NCBI GenBank assembly: GCA_000004695.1
Contig: CM000151.3
Location: forward strand, 2,112,001-2,176,000
Length of the DNA stretch: 64,000 nucleotides
Direction of reading: 5' to 3'
DNA from: Dictyostelium discoideum
Taxonomy: Eukaryota
Below the pieces are notes generated by a model, which worked only from the letters and a program-made list of their open reading frames with translations, was not told the origin of the DNA and did no database searches. Within the stretch, counting starts at the first letter, position 1. Each line of letters starts with the position of its first letter. Both the position numbers and the translations under genes were made by a program. Below, in pieces: positions 5,301 through 14,411 of this stretch.

Positions 5301-6090
5301 ATGATCCAAACATTTTATATATAATGGATCATTAATATCTATTTTATTCTCTTGAAGTTCATTTAATTTCTATTTTTATTTTAAAAAATAAAAAAATTAA
5401 AAAATAAAAAAAGTGTTAGTATTTTGTTTTTAAAAAAAAAAAAAAAATAAAAAATTAAGATACTCAAACAATTTACTGACACAAAAAAAAAAATAGCATT
5501 GTATAAAAGAATGTAATTTTTTAAAAATGAATTCATTATCAAAACATTCCCAATAGTTATTTCAAGTAATTTTTAAATTAAACTCATCAACACAAAATGC
5601 AAATTCCAACATACACAATTATTAATAATGAAAAACATTTAACTTATATCAAAAAATAAATTAAAAAAATAAAAAAAAAAAAATTTAAGGTTTAACACCA
5701 CCAAAAAAAAAAAAAAAAAAATTGTGAAAAAAAAAAAAAAAAAGATTTTTGTAGTTATCACCTTTGAAATTCTTTTTTTTTTTATTTTTTTTTAAAATAT
5801 CTTGAATCTTAATTTCCTTTTTCACACTTTTTTTTAATAAACAATTTTTTGTTTTTTTATTTTTTAATTAACATATTTGTGTGAATAATTCAATCACGAT
5901 TGCGGTAATTTCTAAAATAAAAAATTTTCACCAAATTTTTTATTTTTTTTTATTTTTTTTTTTTTTTATTTTTTTATTTTTATTTTTTTTTTTTTTTTTT
6001 ATTGTCAATTTTGATCAGTCCCTCACAAGTTCATATTTTATTTTTAAATCAAACCAATAAAATAAGAAATAAAAAAATAAAAAATAAGAA

Positions 6091-6531
6091 ATGAGTATTG
6101 GTATACCAGTTAAAATTTTACATGAAGCAGATGGACATATAGTAACAGTGGAGTTAAAAAATGGTGAACTTTATAGAGGTACATTAATAGAGAGTGAAGA
6201 TAATATGAATTGTAGAATGAAGAATATTACAGTCACAGCAAGAGATGGCAGAAACTCTCAAATGGAATATTGTTATGTTAGAGGTAGTAAAGTTCGTTTC
6301 ATCATTTTACCAGATATCTTGAAAAATGCACCAATGTTCAAGAGAATCGATGGTCGTGTAGTACTTAAAGGTAAAGCATTAGGTATTGGTAAAGGTGCAA
6401 CCTTTGAACGTGGTAATTTCAGAGGTGGCCGTGGTGGTGGTGGTGATCGTGGTGGTTTCAAAGGTGGTCGTGGCGGTGGAGGTCGTGGTGGTTCTATGAA
6501 TACTTTCCAACAAAGAAGAGGTCCACAATAA
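6091..6531 (+). CDS. snrpD3: Small nuclear ribonucleoprotein Sm D3
   Basis: [84 protein letters not shown]... matches the SmD3 Sm fold almost residue-for-residue. C-terminal RG/GRGGGG tail (sDMA-type). Confidence 0.95.
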
Positions 6532-6569
6532 AATTAAAAAAAAAAAAAAAAAAAAAAAAATTAAAGTTA

Positions 6570-6570
<1 letters not shown>

Positions 6571-6646
<76 letters not shown>
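6571..6646. repeat. (AAT)n microsatellite, about 25 units, 3' of snrpD3
   Basis: Perfect aataataat... run directly visible. Confidence 0.95.
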
Positions 6647-6647
<1 letters not shown>

Positions 6648-6766
6648 GTACACGCTCTAAAAATTTTAATAACCTATACTAGTAACAGCCCATCATTAAA
6701 AACAAATAACACTCAAATTTATTCGTACGCATTCATTTCCACACAAATCAACAAAACTTATGCAAC

Positions 6767-6812
<46 letters not shown>

Positions 6813-7708
6813 AAAAAAATAAATAAATAAATTATTGTAAATAATAAGTATACTTTTTTTTTTTATTACTATTACTATTAGTATTATTTATTTTTATTTT
6901 ATTTTATTTTATTTTTATTAAATTTTATTTTATTTTATTTTAATTTTTTTTTTTTTTTAAAAATAATAATAATTAATTAATTTTTTATTACAATAGAAAT
7001 ATCAATTATTATAAATTAAAATAAGTTGTTTATTATAATGATTCTCATTGTTTTTTTTTTTTTTTTTTTACACTCAACTGAAAAATTGTTTTTTTTAAAT
7101 AATTACACGATTGTGTTATGACATCTTTTACAACAAAACACATTATTGTATAACCTTTTAGGATTTTTTAAATTATAGTTATTCGAAATATTATTATTAT
7201 TATTATTATTATTATTATGTTATCTTCATATGTATACATTTTTAAAATTGTAGGGAAATGGGGATAGAGTCAAAAATGAAATAGAAAGAGGGTTATGTTT
7301 TAATTATAATAAATAGGAAATGTTGGTTATTTTATTACAATTTCAGTTATTTTGTTTTTTTGTTTTTTTAGTTTTTTTTTTTTTCAATAAAATTTTTATT
7401 AAAAAATTCTAAAAAAAGGAATATATCCATAGTTTGTTCCAATATTTTATTTTCATAAAAAAAATTGTTTTATTTTTTTTTTTTTAAACAGTTTGGATTT
7501 TTAAACACCTTAACACACCCAACAAATAAAAAAATGGTTTTTTTTTTTTTTTTTTTTTTTAAAATTTTATTTTAATTTTATTTTATTTTTTAAAAATAAA
7601 AGTTATCAATTTGTAATTTAATTCATTGTGTTATTATTATTGAAAATACATATATATTTTTTTTGTTTTTTTTTAAAATTGATCTGATCTGTTAGAACTG
7701 CAGATTGT

Positions 7709-7730
7709 TTGTGGTGTGTGGGGTTAAAAT
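7709..7730. promoter_or_regulatory. G-rich 'G-box' (TGTTTGTGGTGTGTGGGGTT) of the type bound by Dictyostelium G-box binding factor (GBF)
   Basis: Isolated GT-rich 20-mer in an otherwise more than 90% A/T intergenic region. Matches the (T/G)G(T/G)G(T/G)G half-site pattern of CAEs. Confidence 0.4.
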
Positions 7731-7945
7731 TTTCTTTTTTTATCATTTTTATTTTTTTTTTTTTTTTTTTTGAATTCAAGAAAAAAATTAATATGATACA
7801 TTATTCCTTATTTATTTTCTTTGATATTAAAGTTCCTCTGAATTTTATTAGATTTGAAAAGTCCAATAGTTTTTATTATTATTATTTTTATTATTTTTAT
7901 TTTTTTTTTTAAAAAAAAAATAACCTCTTATAATTTTTAAGAAAG

Positions 7946-7977
<32 letters not shown>

Positions 7978-8598
7978 AATAATTAAAGAATCGTACTCAT
8001 TCCAAATTATTAGTAAATTATTAATAATATAATTATTCCAACATATATGATTTTTTTTTTTATTTTTTTTAACCTTTTTTATTTTTTTTATTTTTATTTT
8101 TTTTTTAATTTTTTTTTTTTACTTGAAATTGAGTATTTTCGTTGCTAGCTCTTATAATCTACTTTTGTCGTCAATATACCACCCTTCCCTCATTTTTAAC
8201 ACACATAAAACACAATAAAACACAAAACACGACCCACATTTTTAAATAATTTATCCACTCCATCCTTAGAATTTATGAATAAATTTTTAAGCTCATTAAC
8301 TAAATTTACAATATAGACTACCCTCTGTTCCTTCTTTTGTTAATGTTTTCATTAGATTAAATGAAATGAATTGTTGGTTTTTTTAAAATATTGATATAAT
8401 TTATTTCTTTTCTTTTTTCTCAAAGAGAGGAACACTTAACTGAAATAAAAAATGTGTGAATAAAAAAGTAGTAGAACTATTAGTATTGTTTTTTTATTTT
8501 TTTATTTTTTTATTTATTTATTTTATTTTTTATTTTTTATTTTATTAATTTTTTTAGTATTGTATATATATAAAATATTTAAAGTTGGGAATAAAAAA

Positions 8599-8637
<39 letters not shown>

Positions 8638-8694
8638 CTAATCAATGATTTTATAAAAATTCGTCATAACTAATTTATATAATTATCATTATCA

Positions 8695-9045
8695 TTTCAA
8701 ACCACACACGCTCACACACACACACACAACTACCATATTTATCAAATTTTTTAATTATAATAAATTTTTTAATTTTAATTTTTTTGTTTTTATAAAAAAG
8801 AAAAAATAAAATTTATCATATTTTTTTATATTTATATATATAAAAAAATATATAATTATTTATTATTATTTTTAAAAATAATTTTATAAAAATAAAAAAA
8901 CATTTACCCTTCCCTAGTATTTAAATATATAAAGACACTTATTCAAATTCAAATACACACACCACACTCCACAATCCACCCATCCACAATCCACCCATCC
9001 ACAAGTAAAATAATTAACACACACTCACACACACACATAAATATA
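8695..9045. promoter_or_regulatory. Cluster of CA-rich elements (ACCACACACGCTCACACACACACACAAC at 8700-8730; CCACAATCCACCCATCCACAATCCACCCATCCACA and CACACACTCACACACACACA at 8940-9045), about 500-850 bp upstream of the ATG at 9552
   Basis: C-strand versions of GBF-type CAEs, including a tandem direct repeat CCACAATCCACCCAT x2. This is the only C-rich sequence in a 3-kb A/T desert. Confidence 0.4.
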
Positions 9046-9523
9046 TTTTTCTATTCTAATTTCATTTATGTGATAGTACTAATAGTAGTAGTAGTAGTAA
9101 AATTATAAAAAATAAAAATATATTTTTTTTATACCTAACAAGCAAATCTAAATATAATTATCACAAATTATTTTATAAATATAAAAATTATAAATAATCA
9201 AAAATAAAAAAAATAATAATAATAATAAATAAAAATAAAAAAAATAATAAAAACAAAATAAAAAAAAATAAATAAAATAAAATTAAAATTGGTTGGTTGT
9301 TGTTTAAATTCTTTTATTTATTTATTGTATTTTGTTATTTTCTTACACCCCAACCTACAAATAATTTTTTTTTTTTTAATCACCCATCAAAAATTTTATT
9401 ATTTTTTTTTTTTTCCCTCATAGCCCTTTTTTGTAAAAACAAAAAAAAAAAAAAATAGTAATTATAAATAAAAAAAATTTAAATTATTTTTTTTTGTAAA
9501 TAGTAAATTATCCAAAAAATAAA

Positions 9524-11626
<2,103 letters not shown>

Positions 11627-11897
11627 ATTATTTTTTATATAATAATAACCAACAATATAATATACACATTTTTTTTTTAATATAAATAAAAAAATAATAT
11701 AATACTACTTCATACTATCATTACAATCTAAACAAATTTTATTTTTTTAAAAAAAAAAAAAAAATTTTAAATAAAATACATTTTATTTCAACATACATTT
11801 TATTATTATTTTTATTATTGTTATTATTATTATTATTATTATAATTTATTATTATTATTATTATTATTATTTATTATTATTATACTATTTAAAAATT

Positions 11898-14411
11898 TTA
11901 CTCTAAATTTTTAATTAAATTATAAATTAAACCAGATTGTAAAATTGATTTGCAAGTATTTTCTTTTGCAGTTTTTTTATTTTGACCAGATTTAAAATGA
12001 GAATGTGCAGCTTCTTTATTTATATAGAAAGTAGCAATAGCATTAAAAAAACCAGAACCATCAGGAGTATGTTCCCAAGCTATACCAAAATCAAATGTAT
12101 GTCTTTTAACTTGAATAACCATCTCTTGAACCAAAGCACTAGCAGAAGCAAAATAGGAATTTGTATCCATTTCTTCATCAACTTGATTAACTTGAGTTGT
12201 ATAGTTTTGTTGTTTTAAAGATATTGGAAGTTCACCAGTTTTTAAGAAATTAATAGCCTCTTCTAAATATCTTTCTTGATTTTTAAAGAACTCATAGATG
12301 TTATCCTCTCTTGGATCATCAACTTTGACAATACCATAGAAATAACTATCCCTATTTCTTAATCTACCCCTTGATTGAATATTAGCAGTAACGGTTGTTG
12401 GTGGATCTAATCTAATTACAATATTACATTCTGGTACATCGAATCCTTCTTCCACTACACTAGTTGCAACTATAACATTACATTGATCACTTCTAAACTC
12501 TTCTATAGCCTTCTTTTGAGATGATATTGACATTCCACCAATAGAACCATGACCAACTACTAAATTTGGTTTAATAAAAGAGAATCTATCACCCATTCTT
12601 AATTGATCCAAAAGTGAATAAACTTTCTTTGCTACGTCTCTTGTTTTTACAAATATGATTGCTTTTAAATCATCACTCTTTTTTTCATCCAAAATTTGTA
12701 ACGCAATCTCTAACTTTGAAATACTATCCGCAATCTCTTCATCACAAGGTAACGAATGAACCATTGCTAAAATCTCTGATTGAAGTTCTACATCATCAAT
12801 ATTTGAAATCTCTTCAATTAAAAAGGATTTTAAATTTAAACCAACTGGAATTGCACTACCAAACATTTTAAAATTAATAAAATCATTAATTTTTTCAAAA
12901 AATGATGATAAAAACTTATTTAAATTATGATTTTGAGTACTACTATTGGAACCACCACCACCACCACCAACACCTAAACCTTTTAAAGTATTACTATCAA
13001 TTACTGAAGTAACAGAATCAAATAATTCTTGATTATTACTAAGATTTGGTTTATATTTTGAAATTAAATCTTTTAAGATTTGAATTGAGTGACGTTCTAA
13101 ATTATTTGTTGGAATTGGTATGATTTTAATATTCTTTTGATTAATATATGGAATGATTGATTGATTAGTTGGTTTTATAATTTCACAACGACTAACTTTT
13201 GAAATTAATTTCAAGGATAATAAAGTATTGAAAAAATCTTTTTTACCAGCTGGTGACGCAGTTAAACCTAAAATCTTTGGATGACAAATCTCTGGAATCG
13301 TATTTAATTTATCACGTAATAATTTAGCGAATGAATGCTCTTTAACTATATGATGAGCTTCATCGATAACAATCAAACAGAAACTAAGTATATTTAAATC
13401 ACCATTTGATAAAAGTTTATTGAATAAATCACCAATCACCACCAAAACATCAAATCTTTGCTTCAATTGAACTGGTTTAAATGTTTCACCGTGAGCTGAT
13501 AACACCTTTAACCCCGTCTCTGTCTCTATTACGTCTGATTGTTGGATTACCAATGGGATTCTATCTACAATGAAAACTATTTGCTTTGAAGGATTCAATT
13601 GCTTCATTTTCTTTATCACCAAACATGATATTAAAGTCTTACCTAAACCAGTTGGTAAACAACATATTATATCCTTTTCCATTGATTTTCTATAGAGTTC
13701 ACATTGATAATCTCTTGGTTTACTCTTATTCATCTCCATTGGTTTACCATCATCACCCTGTTGTAATGTTTTTATAATTGGCATACCAATTGTTTTAATT
13801 TGACCGAGTGTAAGATTATTACAATTTTCATCTTGAAAAATGCTATTCATAGTATCAACTCTTTGTTGTAAATCACCAAGTGTTCTCTTTAATCTTTCAA
13901 TTTCATTATCCTTTTCCATTTGAGTTGGTTCATTAAAATGTAAATAACTAAAACCACCACTTAATAAATTTCCATCATTTTTTTGTTTTTCAATTAATTC
14001 ATCTTTAATTTTATTTTTATCTATACTAATAAATTTTGAAAATAATGAATCTATTGATTGTTTTGTTTGATATGTTAATTGTTGTGGTTGTTGTGGTGGT
14101 GGTGATTCTATTTCTTGTTCTTGTTGTTGTCTAGTTTTTTTTTGTTCTTGATATTTATTATTTAAATCTTCTCTTCCCTGTTGATTTAAATAATTTAAAA
14201 CTTTTATTGCGCAACATGATTCTGCTGTTTTTTTATTTTTATACCAATCGGAATATACAATTTTATTGTTATGTTTTGAATTAATTTCACCAACGCGTAT
14301 GTGTGTACGATATTCTCTCTCGTGGTCAGGTCCTCTACACTCTGAATGGTATACTGGTAAATATCCTATTCTTTTTTGTTGAATATAAGTTTGTAAATCA
14401 TTTTTAGTCAT
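11898..14411 (-). CDS. Dicer-type DExH/DEAD helicase flanked by N- and C-terminal dsRNA-binding domains (837 aa); architecture as described for the Dictyostelium RNAi suppressor HelF
   Basis: N-terminal dsRBD (DLQTYIQQKRIGYLPVYHSECRGPDHEREYRTHIRV...KKTAESCCAIKVLNYL). Helicase motifs I CLPTGLGKT, II VIDEAHH, III LTASP, VI QSRGRLR. C-terminal dsRBD-like (YFASASALVQEMVIQVKRHTFDFGIAWEHTPDGSGFFNAIATFYINKEAAHSHFKSGQNKKTAKENTCKSILQ). Confidence 0.8.
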   Translation of the reverse strand: MTKNDLQTYIQQKRIGYLPVYHSECRGPDHEREYRTHIRVGEINSKHNNKIVYSDWYKNKKTAESCCAIKVLNYLNQQGREDLNNKYQEQKKTRQQQEQEIESPPPQQPQQLTYQTKQSIDSLFSKFISIDKNKIKDELIEKQKNDGNLLSGGFSYLHFNEPTQMEKDNEIERLKRTLGDLQQRVDTMNSIFQDENCNNLTLGQIKTIGMPIIKTLQQGDDGKPMEMNKSKPRDYQCELYRKSMEKDIICCLPTGLGKTLISCLVIKKMKQLNPSKQIVFIVDRIPLVIQQSDVIETETGLKVLSAHGETFKPVQLKQRFDVLVVIGDLFNKLLSNGDLNILSFCLIVIDEAHHIVKEHSFAKLLRDKLNTIPEICHPKILGLTASPAGKKDFFNTLLSLKLISKVSRCEIIKPTNQSIIPYINQKNIKIIPIPTNNLERHSIQILKDLISKYKPNLSNNQELFDSVTSVIDSNTLKGLGVGGGGGGSNSSTQNHNLNKFLSSFFEKINDFINFKMFGSAIPVGLNLKSFLIEEISNIDDVELQSEILAMVHSLPCDEEIADSISKLEIALQILDEKKSDDLKAIIFVKTRDVAKKVYSLLDQLRMGDRFSFIKPNLVVGHGSIGGMSISSQKKAIEEFRSDQCNVIVATSVVEEGFDVPECNIVIRLDPPTTVTANIQSRGRLRNRDSYFYGIVKVDDPREDNIYEFFKNQERYLEEAINFLKTGELPISLKQQNYTTQVNQVDEEMDTNSYFASASALVQEMVIQVKRHTFDFGIAWEHTPDGSGFFNAIATFYINKEAAHSHFKSGQNKKTAKENTCKSILQSGLIYNLIKNLE

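Follow-up and report, generated by a model that had tools for sequence, protein, structure and literature searches.

The DNA analysed here, referred to as the window, is a 64-kb stretch of chromosome 2 (chr2) of Dictyostelium discoideum AX4, in which a window position equals the chr2 position minus 2,111,999, an offset that we checked on three genes. The stop codon of the SmD3 gene (DDB_G0273003) lies at 6531 and the ATG of DDB_G0273005 at 9552, and the 3,019 bp between them are gene-free. The following features frame this spacer, with the identifier and coordinates of DDB_G0273005 taken from PMC11754127 (source of the identifier: the supplement of the Hi-C paper):

5987-6792, minus strand: antisense RNA model CUFF_1025_1 (PMC5295588, File S7), over the SmD3 ORF, with its 5' end at ~6792 inside the spacer
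6533-9551, no strand: spacer between SmD3 and DDB_G0273005, 3,019 bp, chr2:2,118,532-2,121,550, GC 15.1%
9463-9495, plus strand: putative core promoter, TATAAATA (9463-9470) and then oligo-T at 9487-9495, at 57-89 nt upstream of the ATG
9552-11626, plus strand: DDB_G0273005, exons 9552-10020 and 10122-11626, 657 aa

DDB_G0273005 codes for an Asn-rich protein with a Cys/His motif and a winged-helix-like domain. Its similarity to the Pcl PHD2-WH structure 5oqd (E=0.002) and to ASH2L-like_WH (E=0.003, short of the Pfam cut-off) is weak, and we regard it as a putative chromatin or DNA-binding protein. Gene callers reproduce the model in nine related assemblies, with a conserved ATG and no upstream coding exon. 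Dictyostelium promoters feature a TATA box followed by an oligo-dT run ahead of the start site; by analogy, the stretch at 9463-9495 would be the core promoter of this gene.

The original prediction had singled out this intergenic region as unusually long, at about 3 kb, and the comparison bears this out: 3,019 bp stands against a mean intergenic length of ~700 bp in D. discoideum (PMC5295588), and gene callers leave 2.7-3.2 kb empty at the same place in the nine related assemblies. In every locus this spacer is the longest, with the others ranging from 106 to 1,400 bp. Its base composition had been overstated, as the measured A/T content is 84.9% and not above 90%. Nor are the CA- and G-rich motifs its sole G/C-containing sequences, since conserved GC-richer islands are found too, for example at 8113-8490 (25% GC) and 6660-6760. 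The longest ORF in the spacer is a low-complexity one of 67 aa and, with no gene calls there in any of the nine assemblies, we find no conserved coding exon. Scans for tRNAs and Rfam families returned nothing from the spacer, and a sliding-window fold for miRNA-like hairpins yielded only pairings of A-runs with T-runs (best z -3.7).

CA-rich and G-rich elements upstream of DDB_G0273005

The published consensus of the GBF response element is (T/G)G(T/G)G(T/G)G(T/G), i.e., KGKGKGK (PMC2257962). Of the 35 merged elements of this form in the window, 13 fall in the spacer, which accounts for 4.7% of the sequence and would be expected to hold 1.65 (~8-fold enrichment; binomial P=3e-9). This corresponds to 4.3 elements per kb, compared to 0.30 per kb in other AT-rich DNA, and 2,000 Markov-1 simulations of the spacer averaged 1.0 and never exceeded 6. 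Several occur as pairs or clusters, namely 8702-8708 with 8714-8728, the trio 8955-8963, 8976-8982 and 8991-8997, and 9017-9023 with 9027-9037. The principal elements are:

7706-7725, plus strand: distal G-rich (G-box-like) element TGTTTGTGGTGTGTGGGGTT, KGKGKGK core at 7713-7723, ~1.83 kb upstream of the ATG
8701-8730, plus strand: CA-rich element 1, 30 nt, with a (CA)n length that differs between genomes
8955-9003, plus strand: CA-rich element 2, including two copies of the 15-bp direct repeat CCACAATCCACCCAT at 8969-9003
9017-9037, plus strand: CA-rich element 3, ACACACACTCACACACACACA, with CACACACTCACACACACACA at 9018-9037

The motifs quoted in the original prediction thus exist and lie far above chance, albeit with small errors of position: TGTTTGTGGTGTGTGGGGTT is at 7706-7725 and not 7709-7728, and the first CA element is a 30-nt stretch at 8701-8730 that differs from the quoted form because one CA had been dropped. 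Their assignment to the G-box/CA-rich type is supported in that they match the published GBF consensus (PMC2257962), are clustered and have conserved positions.

In an alignment of nine genomes (AX4 and eight relatives), the CA/G elements hold their positions. The core G(G)TGGGGTTAA of the distal G-rich element is kept in 9/9 genomes, with a variable 5' part. In the 3' core of CA-rich element 1, CACACACAACTACCATAT(T/A)TATCAA, two positions vary: two species have CACCCAC, and D. citrinum has A instead of T. For CA-rich element 2, the second repeat copy, CCACAATCCACCCATCCACAAG, is present in 9/9 genomes with a few substitutions and the first is specific to AX4; a CA-rich tract of variable length occupies the place of element 3 in all nine. 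It should be noted that KGKGKGK is a loose 7-mer and that the AX4 signal is in part a (CA)n microsatellite expansion, variable in length even among close strains.

All eight close relatives show the enrichment, with 8-13 elements compared to 1.7-3.4 expected. It extends to more distant species: D. purpureum has 14 elements upstream of the orthologue (4.4 expected), C. fasciculata 7 (1.9 expected), and P. violaceum 7 within the 1,448 bp immediately ahead of the orthologue (1.1 expected), a region that another gene separates from SmD3. SmD3 of C. fasciculata likewise has an excess of the motif upstream (6 elements; 1.3 expected), and the gene specificity is therefore weaker in this species. These patterns support a tie of the enrichment to DDB_G0273005 and not to SmD3, with the elements following the gene across a change in synteny. 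In the D. discoideum group 12 of the 13 elements lie on one strand. At greater distance this bias is gone, with C-strand elements making up 4/7 in P. violaceum and 8/14 in D. purpureum, which argues for a function of the elements at the level of DNA rather than RNA.

Conservation of the spacer

The spacer is strongly conserved, with a mean column identity of 0.80 to eight orthologous regions and 45% invariant columns. Three neighbouring intergenic regions, aligned by the same procedure, reach 0.53-0.62 and 6-17%. Windows of 60 nt with identity of at least 0.93 make up 10% of the spacer and are absent from the neighbouring intergenic DNA. Using the helF gene as a yardstick, the whole-spacer average is close to that of third codon positions (0.83), and about ten blocks are constrained like second codon positions (0.93; 76% invariant). 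Among the sub-segments compared, 8624-9514 has the highest identity (0.835), and 7598-8490 reaches 0.831. The conserved segments are:

7250-7340, no strand: smaller GC-richer island, 26% GC, moderately conserved (identity 0.90; 52% invariant columns)
7598-7872, no strand: distal conserved blocks, D (7603-7692) on one side of the G-rich element and E (7783-7872) on the other, identity 0.93-0.95
8113-8490, no strand: distal conserved island, 25% GC, with blocks A (8120-8190), B (8290-8383) and C (8413-8480)
8603-8637, no strand: T35 homopolymer tract, bounding the proximal module on its distal side; the 3' ends of the two minus-strand transcript models described below map here
8641-8667, plus strand: bipartite element ATCAATGAT-N12-CGTCAT, a palindrome and a TGACG (CRE-like) half-site, -911 to -885 from the ATG
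9043-9342, no strand: three proximal conserved blocks (9043-9102, 9133-9192, 9283-9342) that lie past the CA-rich cluster and ahead of the core promoter

Blocks A to C have mean identities of 0.92-0.96 with 70-81% invariant columns, and the CA-rich stretch between A and B (8195-8290) is variable. The proximal blocks reach 0.93-0.96 and include a 27-nt invariant run at 9070-9096. Invariant blocks of 60-95 nt exceed typical clusters of factor sites in length, which speaks against a plain promoter reading.

Beyond the close relatives, nhmmer profiles of the blocks gave no significant match in P. violaceum or in the 3.1 kb of D. purpureum that follow SmD3 up to the contig end, the best being an inverted CTCAAAGAGAG in P. 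violaceum (E=0.039). Searches against these two species with blastn and exact k-mers were swamped by AT-rich low complexity or lay weakly above chance; the k-mer comparison with the distant species found 6 shared 8-mers compared to 1.7 expected (4/200 shuffles). The bipartite element reaches further. It occurs once in the window (0.00 expected), and the pattern ATCAWTGAT-N-CGTCAT, which was derived post hoc from three species, has a single copy in every one of the 11 loci containing it, including those of D. purpureum and P. violaceum, always upstream of the DDB_G0273005 orthologue and on its sense strand; a MAFFT alignment of the module across distant species misaligned it. A Myb-like motif, AACTGAAA, was set aside: three of its ten copies in the window lie in the spacer, but the window as a whole holds no more of them than chance predicts.

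Expression of the gene and transcripts over the spacer

The RNA-seq reading for DDB_G0273005 is 0 at 0, 2, 5 and 8 h (PMC11754127 STab6a). The gene is listed among the up-regulated genes in columns that we assigned as UP_Hr18_rapid and UP_Hr20_gradual (PMC4403905 Additional file 7), the 18 h assignment being a reconstruction from tab counts and identifier slopes and not read from a header. For comparison with this onset at ~18 h, cotB and pspA rise at 10-12 h. Induction at 16-18 h, i.e., culmination, is thus developmental, as had been predicted for the downstream gene, but GBF targets typically come on earlier, after aggregation (8-12 h). Because gbfA-null cells arrest in development before the 16-18 h stage, expression in a gbfA deletion is a weak, non-diagnostic test for this gene. 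A full-text literature search for the identifier gave no match, and no ChIP, EMSA or gbfA-null data were found.

Two published minus-strand transcript models run through the proximal part of the spacer:

8624-9514, minus strand: intergenic lncRNA DDB_G3970163, chr2:2120623-2121513, 890 nt, one exon (PMC5295588, Files S4 and S6)
8616-10777, minus strand: longer transcript model DDB_G3962884 from a different annotation, overlapping the 5' half of DDB_G0273005 in antisense and continuing across the proximal upstream region (PMC11754127 STab6a)

DDB_G3970163 is divergent from DDB_G0273005, spans all three CA-rich elements (GC 15.9%) and, like the lncRNA set to which it belongs, is at least 200 nt long, wholly intergenic and drawn from strand-specific RNA-seq. 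Its level correlates positively with that of DDB_G0273005 (Spearman rho +0.518) and negatively with that of SmD3 (-0.629) (PMC5295588). The expression of DDB_G3962884 is 0 at 0-8 h (PMC11754127), and the lncRNAs of PMC5295588 have a median maximum of 1 RPKM. Since both ends of the DDB_G3970163 model fall at homopolymer runs, they may be limits of mappability. As the proximal module is transcribed, part of the constraint on it could act on RNA. The published lncRNA over the CA-rich cluster had been missed in the original prediction.

The spacer as a candidate control region

In P. violaceum and C. fasciculata, SmD3 and the orthologue flank a strictosidine-synthase-like gene, and the order SmD3-SGL-X is therefore probably ancestral. 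The spacer could then be a mostly neutral leftover, long after loss of the intervening gene in the D. discoideum group, and its CA-rich tracts functionless microsatellites, as would fit the (CA)n lengths that vary among strains and the nearness of the average constraint (0.80) to that of helF third codon positions (0.83). This is hard to square with the far lower conservation of neighbouring intergenic DNA (0.53-0.62, without a single 60-nt window at the 0.93 level), with element cores and a bipartite element kept across deep divergence, or with a motif enrichment that tracks the gene where synteny differs. Moreover, tblastx finds no SGL remnant in the AX4 spacer, and only noise-level similarity in that of D. 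purpureum (E=0.55); a pseudogene of the lost SGL gene was rejected on this negative result, and we judge the neutral reading to be quite improbable. Somewhat less improbable, yet still unlikely in our estimation, is that the minus-strand transcripts DDB_G3970163 and DDB_G3962884 are themselves the functional unit and act on DDB_G0273005 as RNA or via transcription; 8616-9514, and perhaps more, would be constrained for RNA, and the CA-rich DNA would matter as GU-rich RNA. The published models cover exactly this stretch, which holds the highest identity among the sub-segments compared (0.835), and both the rho of +0.52 with the gene and the shared strand of 12/13 elements in the D. discoideum group point the same way. 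However, conservation is equal in 7598-8490 (0.831), where there are no transcript models, and the motif strand bias is gone in D. purpureum and P. violaceum. No window folds convincingly, the best z of -3.7 being an A/T-run pairing, the lncRNAs reach a median maximum of only 1 RPKM (PMC5295588), and the model ends at homopolymer runs are possibly limits of mappability.

The GC-richer islands had been proposed, as 7250-7340 and 8140-8470, to be untranslated exons or a small ncRNA, for which we find no Rfam hit, DUSE, structure or published transcript model. The former has no ORF, Rfam hit or published transcript model, and 8113-8490 has no ORF or Rfam match, fold z-scores of -0.7 and -0.5, and compensatory changes in 0/51 predicted pairs. 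A candidate for a small RNA gene is block B, which is near-invariant (0.96), ends in GGTTTTTTT with a terminating T-run at 8377-8384, and would give an RNA of ~85 nt. The DUSE-like ACCCACAT (8232-8239) lies ~60 nt upstream, a spacing that agrees with the DUSE-to-TSS distance (PMC7919456, PMC3188802), and such an RNA would be unlisted among RNA-seq models that needed at least 200 nt (PMC5295588). DUSE-driven small ncRNA genes (Class I RNAs and snRNAs) are resembled in this ACCCACA ~60 nt ahead of a conserved block ending in a T-run, and in a conserved AAATGTG, the TGTG-box sequence, at 8450-8456. In contrast to them, the spacer lacks the canonical DUSE [AT]CCCA[AT]AA; even the permissive form [AT]CCCA[ACT]AA has 0 matches on both strands, and genome L005 has lost the DUSE-like stretch, which is thus dispensable there, while keeping block B. 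The 11-nt motif of Class I RNAs (CCTTACAGCAA type; CTTACAG is absent) and their terminal stem are lacking, as is any Rfam match at E<=10, and profile searches show no trace of block B in D. purpureum or P. violaceum. With neither DUSE, fold nor covariation, and with the block absent from the distant-species searches, a small RNA gene was dropped as the leading idea and ranks as the least probable of the readings weighed here. Barely better is the chance that the islands are untranslated 5' exons of DDB_G0273005. Transcription would then begin at a distal promoter, such as one just past the T-run that ends at 8120, and splicing would use an acceptor near 9510 (TTTTTTTTTGTAAATAG). The sequence context of Dictyostelium start sites is resembled by this T-run with the conserved block next to it at 8121, an acceptor is plausible at 9487-9503, and plus-strand signal continuous with the gene would be filtered from the lncRNA list (PMC5295588); against this, blocks A to C have no conserved GTAAGT-type donor after them, a standard TATA and oligo-T promoter lies 60-90 nt ahead of the ATG, and an upstream exon is called in 0/9 gene annotations. 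The 378-bp island at 8113-8490 resembles coding DNA in its GC content (25%) and its conservation. That it is an unannotated non-coding element with a function confined to the D. discoideum group, either an unstructured regulatory RNA or an unusually dense distal enhancer, also seems doubtful, though less so than either of these. Were it an enhancer, it would act 1.1-1.4 kb from the gene in a genome thought to be promoter-proximal in its regulation, and the divergent lncRNA could belong to the same switch.

We favour, with a probability of about 60%, the reading of the spacer as an extended and strongly conserved 5' regulatory region of the late-development gene DDB_G0273005, and infer that its sequences act as DNA binding sites. 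The gene is silent in growth and early development and, by the column assignment given above, switched on at ~16-18 h, from slug to culmination. A proximal module of ~0.9 kb (8603-9551) combines the putative TATA/oligo-T core promoter with three CA-rich clusters of the G-box/CAE type at -850 to -515, the deeply conserved bipartite element at about -900 and several invariant AT-rich blocks, and is transcribed away from the gene as the lncRNA DDB_G3970163, whose level rises and falls with that of the gene. The conserved blocks and the G-rich element at -1.1 to -2.0 kb are candidate distal control sequences. A CA/G-box-binding zinc-finger factor, for which GBF is the known candidate, might occupy the CA-rich clusters; that GBF itself is this factor is a tentative proposal by analogy, which we hold to be less likely than not. 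Stage specificity could come from other factors at the conserved blocks, such as a bZIP protein at CGTCAT.

The G-box/CAE promoters of GBF (gbfA) targets, such as cprB, cotC/SP60, pspA and the sigN genes, provide the closest parallel: they too have clustered consensus elements, often in close pairs, situated some hundreds of bp ahead of a gene that is induced in development, with conserved AT-rich blocks. DDB_G0273005 differs from them in its induction at ~18 h rather than at the mound stage, and in that its elements lie at -515 to -850 and -1.83 kb, inside a 3-kb conserved region; its signal is partly simple (CA)n. Similarly, DDB_G3970163 is listed among the developmental intergenic lncRNAs of D. 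discoideum (Rosengarten et al. 2017, PMC5295588), and its level correlates with that of the adjacent gene through development (rho 0.52), but it is divergent from that gene and overlaps a motif cluster whose conservation reaches well outside the D. discoideum group.

The proposed control region is of a known kind, the lncRNA is already published, and nothing known is overturned. Nevertheless, the cis-regulatory logic of Dictyostelium is known from a handful of dissected promoters, and a 3-kb control region would be exceptional in this compact genome. The locus offers a ready-made phylogenetic footprint, with about ten blocks conserved at coding level, a bipartite element found in species as far apart as D. 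discoideum and P. violaceum, and CA-rich clusters that stay with the gene where synteny changes. Thus, it may serve as a test bed for the roles of CA-rich elements outside the classic mound-stage genes, for the relevance of divergent lncRNA transcription, and for the factors that drive the leap in expression at 16-18 h.

The locus and its GBF-type elements

Published gene coordinates (supplementary table, PMC11754127), compared with the genes in the window, place each window position at the chr2 position minus 2,111,999:

6091-6531, plus strand: SmD3 (DDB_G0273003; chr2:2118090-2118531), an ORF identical to D. discoideum AX4 XP_001134627
6533-9551: the spacer, 3,019 bp, GC 15.1%
9552-11626, plus strand: DDB_G0273005 (chr2:2121551-2123626), of the same length as the published gene, 2,075 nt
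11898-14411, minus strand: 837-aa ORF identical to DDB_G0294407 (dsRBD and DEAD helicase of the 8.48-Mb chromosome 2; chr2:2123897-2126411)

The mean intergenic distance in this genome is about 700 bp, and GC content is about 13% in random intergenic DNA, 17% in lncRNAs and 25% in ORFs (PMC5295588). The A/T content of the spacer is 84.9%, short of the >90% of the original prediction. All four motifs quoted there are present in the spacer, with small errors of position or sequence; they are not its only G/C-containing motifs, as a 25% GC island (8113-8490) also lies within it. The ORF scan of the spacer gave none above 67 aa, the 67-aa one being of low complexity, the tRNA scan found none, and the Rfam search returned no match at E ≤ 10. 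Further, all relatives reproduce the start codon of DDB_G0273005 (ATG at 9552) and its one intron (10021-10121), so that no hidden coding exon lies upstream. The gap between the convergent DDB_G0273005 and helicase genes (11627-11897) falls in the chromatin "loop anchor" class of a Hi-C study (PMC11754127 STab6a).

Matches to the response element published for GBF, (T/G)G(T/G)G(T/G)G(T/G) (KGKGKGK; PMC2257962), were merged into elements and counted. Clustering in the spacer is statistically strong: with 4.7% of the 64-kb window it holds 13 of the 35 elements (binomial P = 3 × 10−9), a density of 4.3/kb against 0.30/kb in the AT-rich DNA elsewhere in the window and 0.57/kb in coding-like sequence. 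In 2,000 first-order Markov simulations of the spacer, the mean was 1.0 element and the maximum 6. On the plus strand, all but one of the 13 read as C-rich.

Conservation of the spacer and a bipartite element

Using SmD3 as a handle, we retrieved orthologous loci from D. firmibasis, D. citrinum (two assemblies), D. dimigraforme, D. cf. discoideum and four other D. discoideum assemblies. Across all annotations of these loci, 2.7-3.2 kb is gene-free at this position, the longest spacer in each locus, the remaining ones measuring 106-1,400 bp. Three assemblies labelled Dictyostelium discoideum (L006, L007, L008) show 87-90% identity to AX4 over 6533-9551, and a further one (L011) 98.7%; the former divergence is large for one species, and these strains may represent cryptic species, or the spacer repeats may be unusually polymorphic.

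In a MAFFT alignment with the eight closest orthologous regions the spacer is alignable from end to end. Codon positions of the neighbouring helicase served as a near-neutral yardstick, and three neighbouring intergenic regions, aligned in the same way, as controls.

Conservation of the spacer, helicase codon positions and control regions (mean column identity; invariant columns)
Helicase codon position 1: 0.90; 68%
Helicase codon position 2: 0.93; 76%
Helicase codon position 3: 0.83; 44%
Three neighbouring intergenic regions: 0.53-0.62; 6-17%
Spacer: 0.80; 45%

An identity of 0.93 is reached by 10% of the 60-nt windows in the spacer and by no window of the three controls. Some ten blocks, each 60-95 nt long, have a mean identity of 0.92-0.96 with 67-85% invariant columns, and are separated by variable homopolymer and microsatellite tracts; they are listed here together with the CA- and G-rich elements:

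7603-7692; 7783-7872: conserved blocks
8120-8190 (A); 8290-8383 (B); 8413-8480 (C): conserved blocks of the distal island
8623-8682; 8893-8952: conserved blocks
9043-9102; 9133-9192; 9283-9342: conserved blocks
7706-7725: G-rich element
8701-8730; 8955-9003; 9017-9037: CA-rich clusters

The CA- and G-rich elements hold fixed positions in all nine genomes, with (CA)n of variable length; their conserved cores include GGTGGGGTTAA, CACACACAACTACCATATTTATCAA, ACATTTACCCTTCCC and CCACAATCCACCCATCCACAAG, most cores differing at one or two positions in some species. The distal spacer also contains a conserved palindrome, ACACGAT(T/C)GTGT (7106-7117), perfect in D. firmibasis and D. dimigraforme, which looks like a putative dimeric factor site.

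On reading the sequences, we spotted a bipartite pattern common to three distant ones, ATCAWTGAT-N(1-20)-CGTCAT followed by an AACCAYAC-type CA element. ATCAWTGAT-N(1-20)-CGTCAT has one match in the 64-kb window (8641-8667; 0.00 expected) and exactly one in each of the 11 loci containing it, always upstream of the DDB_G0273005 orthologue and on its sense strand. Since the pattern was set post hoc from three species, the result gives strong support but falls short of a clean test. C. fasciculata lacks the exact pattern but has a TACGTCA core next to a C-rich element.

In P. violaceum (L010 10001-15693) and C. fasciculata (L013 10001-16630), a strictosidine-synthase-like (SGL) gene separates SmD3 from the DDB_G0273005 orthologue. 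Enrichment of KGKGKGK elements persists directly upstream of the orthologue, with 7 of the 16 elements of P. violaceum, within 1,448 bp, and 7 elements in C. fasciculata versus 1.9 expected. In D. purpureum, whose contig ends 3.1 kb past SmD3, the gene-free stretch carries 14 of the 19 elements of the locus. At the distances of P. violaceum and D. purpureum the motifs occur on both strands, which fits recognition at the DNA level better than a function at the RNA level. Profiles of the long conserved blocks gave no significant hit in either D. purpureum or P. violaceum, and three-way exact k-mer sharing is weakly above chance; deep conservation thus lies in short motifs, as would be expected of factor-binding sites with turnover. 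The SGL gene is missing from the interval in the D. discoideum group and from the available D. purpureum sequence, and, as to why the spacer is so long, the gene order of P. violaceum and C. fasciculata suggests its loss from the interval in the D. discoideum lineage. tblastx detected no SGL remnant in the interval, and, judged against the neighbouring intergenic controls, the spacer is much too conserved for decaying DNA.

Non-coding transcripts and GC-richer islands

A published intergenic lncRNA missed by the original prediction, DDB_G3970163 (chr2:2120623-2121513, minus strand; PMC5295588 File S4), corresponds to 8624-9514. Its 5′ end lies 38 nt upstream of the DDB_G0273005 ATG and its 3′ end within a T35 tract (8603-8637), so that it runs divergently across all three CA-rich clusters; homopolymer runs adjoin both ends of the model, making its true extent uncertain. 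Its abundance correlates with DDB_G0273005 at a Spearman coefficient of +0.518 and with SmD3 at −0.629 (PMC5295588 File S6). A longer minus-strand model, DDB_G3962884, covers 8616-10777 (annotation in PMC11754127). An antisense RNA over SmD3 (5987-6792, minus strand; PMC5295588 File S7) starts inside the spacer; this model, CUFF_1025_1, spans the whole SmD3 ORF, starts just after an A26 run (6773-6798) and is anticorrelated with SmD3 (rho −0.59). No published transcript model covers 6793-8615.

The island at 8140-8470 belongs to a 378-bp stretch (8113-8490) with the GC content of the ORF median, 25%, and three near-invariant blocks. The original prediction allowed for a small ncRNA here, and we tested this because block B ends in a T-run and is preceded, at a distance of about 60 nt, by ACCCACAT; a distance of about 60 nt also separates DUSE elements from the Dictyostelium ncRNA genes downstream of them (PMC7919456, PMC3188802). 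The candidate failed on all counts: the spacer has no match even to a relaxed DUSE and lacks the Class I motif, the DUSE-like stretch is deleted in one genome retaining block B, the folding energy is ordinary (z −0.7 and −0.5), and RNAalifold found compensatory changes in 0 of 51 pairs. A TGTG-box sequence (8450-8456) has neither a DUSE 60 nt upstream nor a Class I RNA downstream. The other island (7250-7340) shows moderate conservation (0.90). For both, dense distal control sequence is the best reading, an unstructured RNA being a less likely alternative. TTCCTTCTTTT in block B (8328-8338) and CTCAAAGAGAGGAA in block C (8419-8431) form an imperfect inverted repeat, both arms invariant in nine genomes, and may be a pair of sites bound by a single factor. 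A further, inverted copy of CTCAAAGAGAG lies upstream of the P. violaceum orthologue (nhmmer E = 0.039).

Late expression and product of DDB_G0273005

In PMC11754127 STab6a, expression of DDB_G0273005 is 0, 0, 0 and 0 at 0, 2, 5 and 8 h of development, with SmD3 at 182-236 and the helicase at 35-139. Among genes differentially expressed per time point in filter development, it has two entries in the sheet filter_UP (PMC4403905 Additional file 7). Assigning columns by tab counts and by extrapolating the descending identifier order of the first 24 rows, rather than beneath the header, places it by both methods in UP_Hr18_rapid and UP_Hr20_gradual. With columns so reconstructed, the predicted developmental induction is borne out, but it is late. 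Of two rapid transitions, one falls at 16-18 h, with a sharp climb of ecmA, ecmB and ecmF that follows cudA and mybE at 16 h. In these data, the rise of the classic prespore genes dependent on GBF comes at 10-12 h (PMC4403905).

No Pfam domain scores above cut-off in the DDB_G0273005 protein. The Cys/His motif and the next ~100 residues (about 85-210) align with the PHD2/winged-helix of Drosophila Polycomb-like (PDB 5oqd, E = 0.002) and weakly with an ASH2L-like winged helix (PF21198, E = 0.003). D. discoideum and P. violaceum share 74% identity in this domain, and the resemblance suggests a putative DNA/chromatin binder with a zinc finger and a winged helix, instead of the generic "zinc-binding protein". 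NCBI assemblies carry annotations of DDB_G0273005 and of all its orthologues, yet a large protein collection lacks them, possibly owing to extreme Asn/Ser low complexity, so that a homology search with proteins of this kind comes back empty.

Overall, we favor, with a probability of roughly 0.6, the reading of the spacer as an extended multi-module regulatory region of the late gene DDB_G0273005 with CAE/G-box-type elements, the proximal part of which is also the template of a co-regulated divergent lncRNA. GBF itself would be a plausible but tentative candidate for the factor binding these elements. The element class was already known and the lncRNA published; what is new is the footprint, namely the exceptional conservation and the bipartite element.
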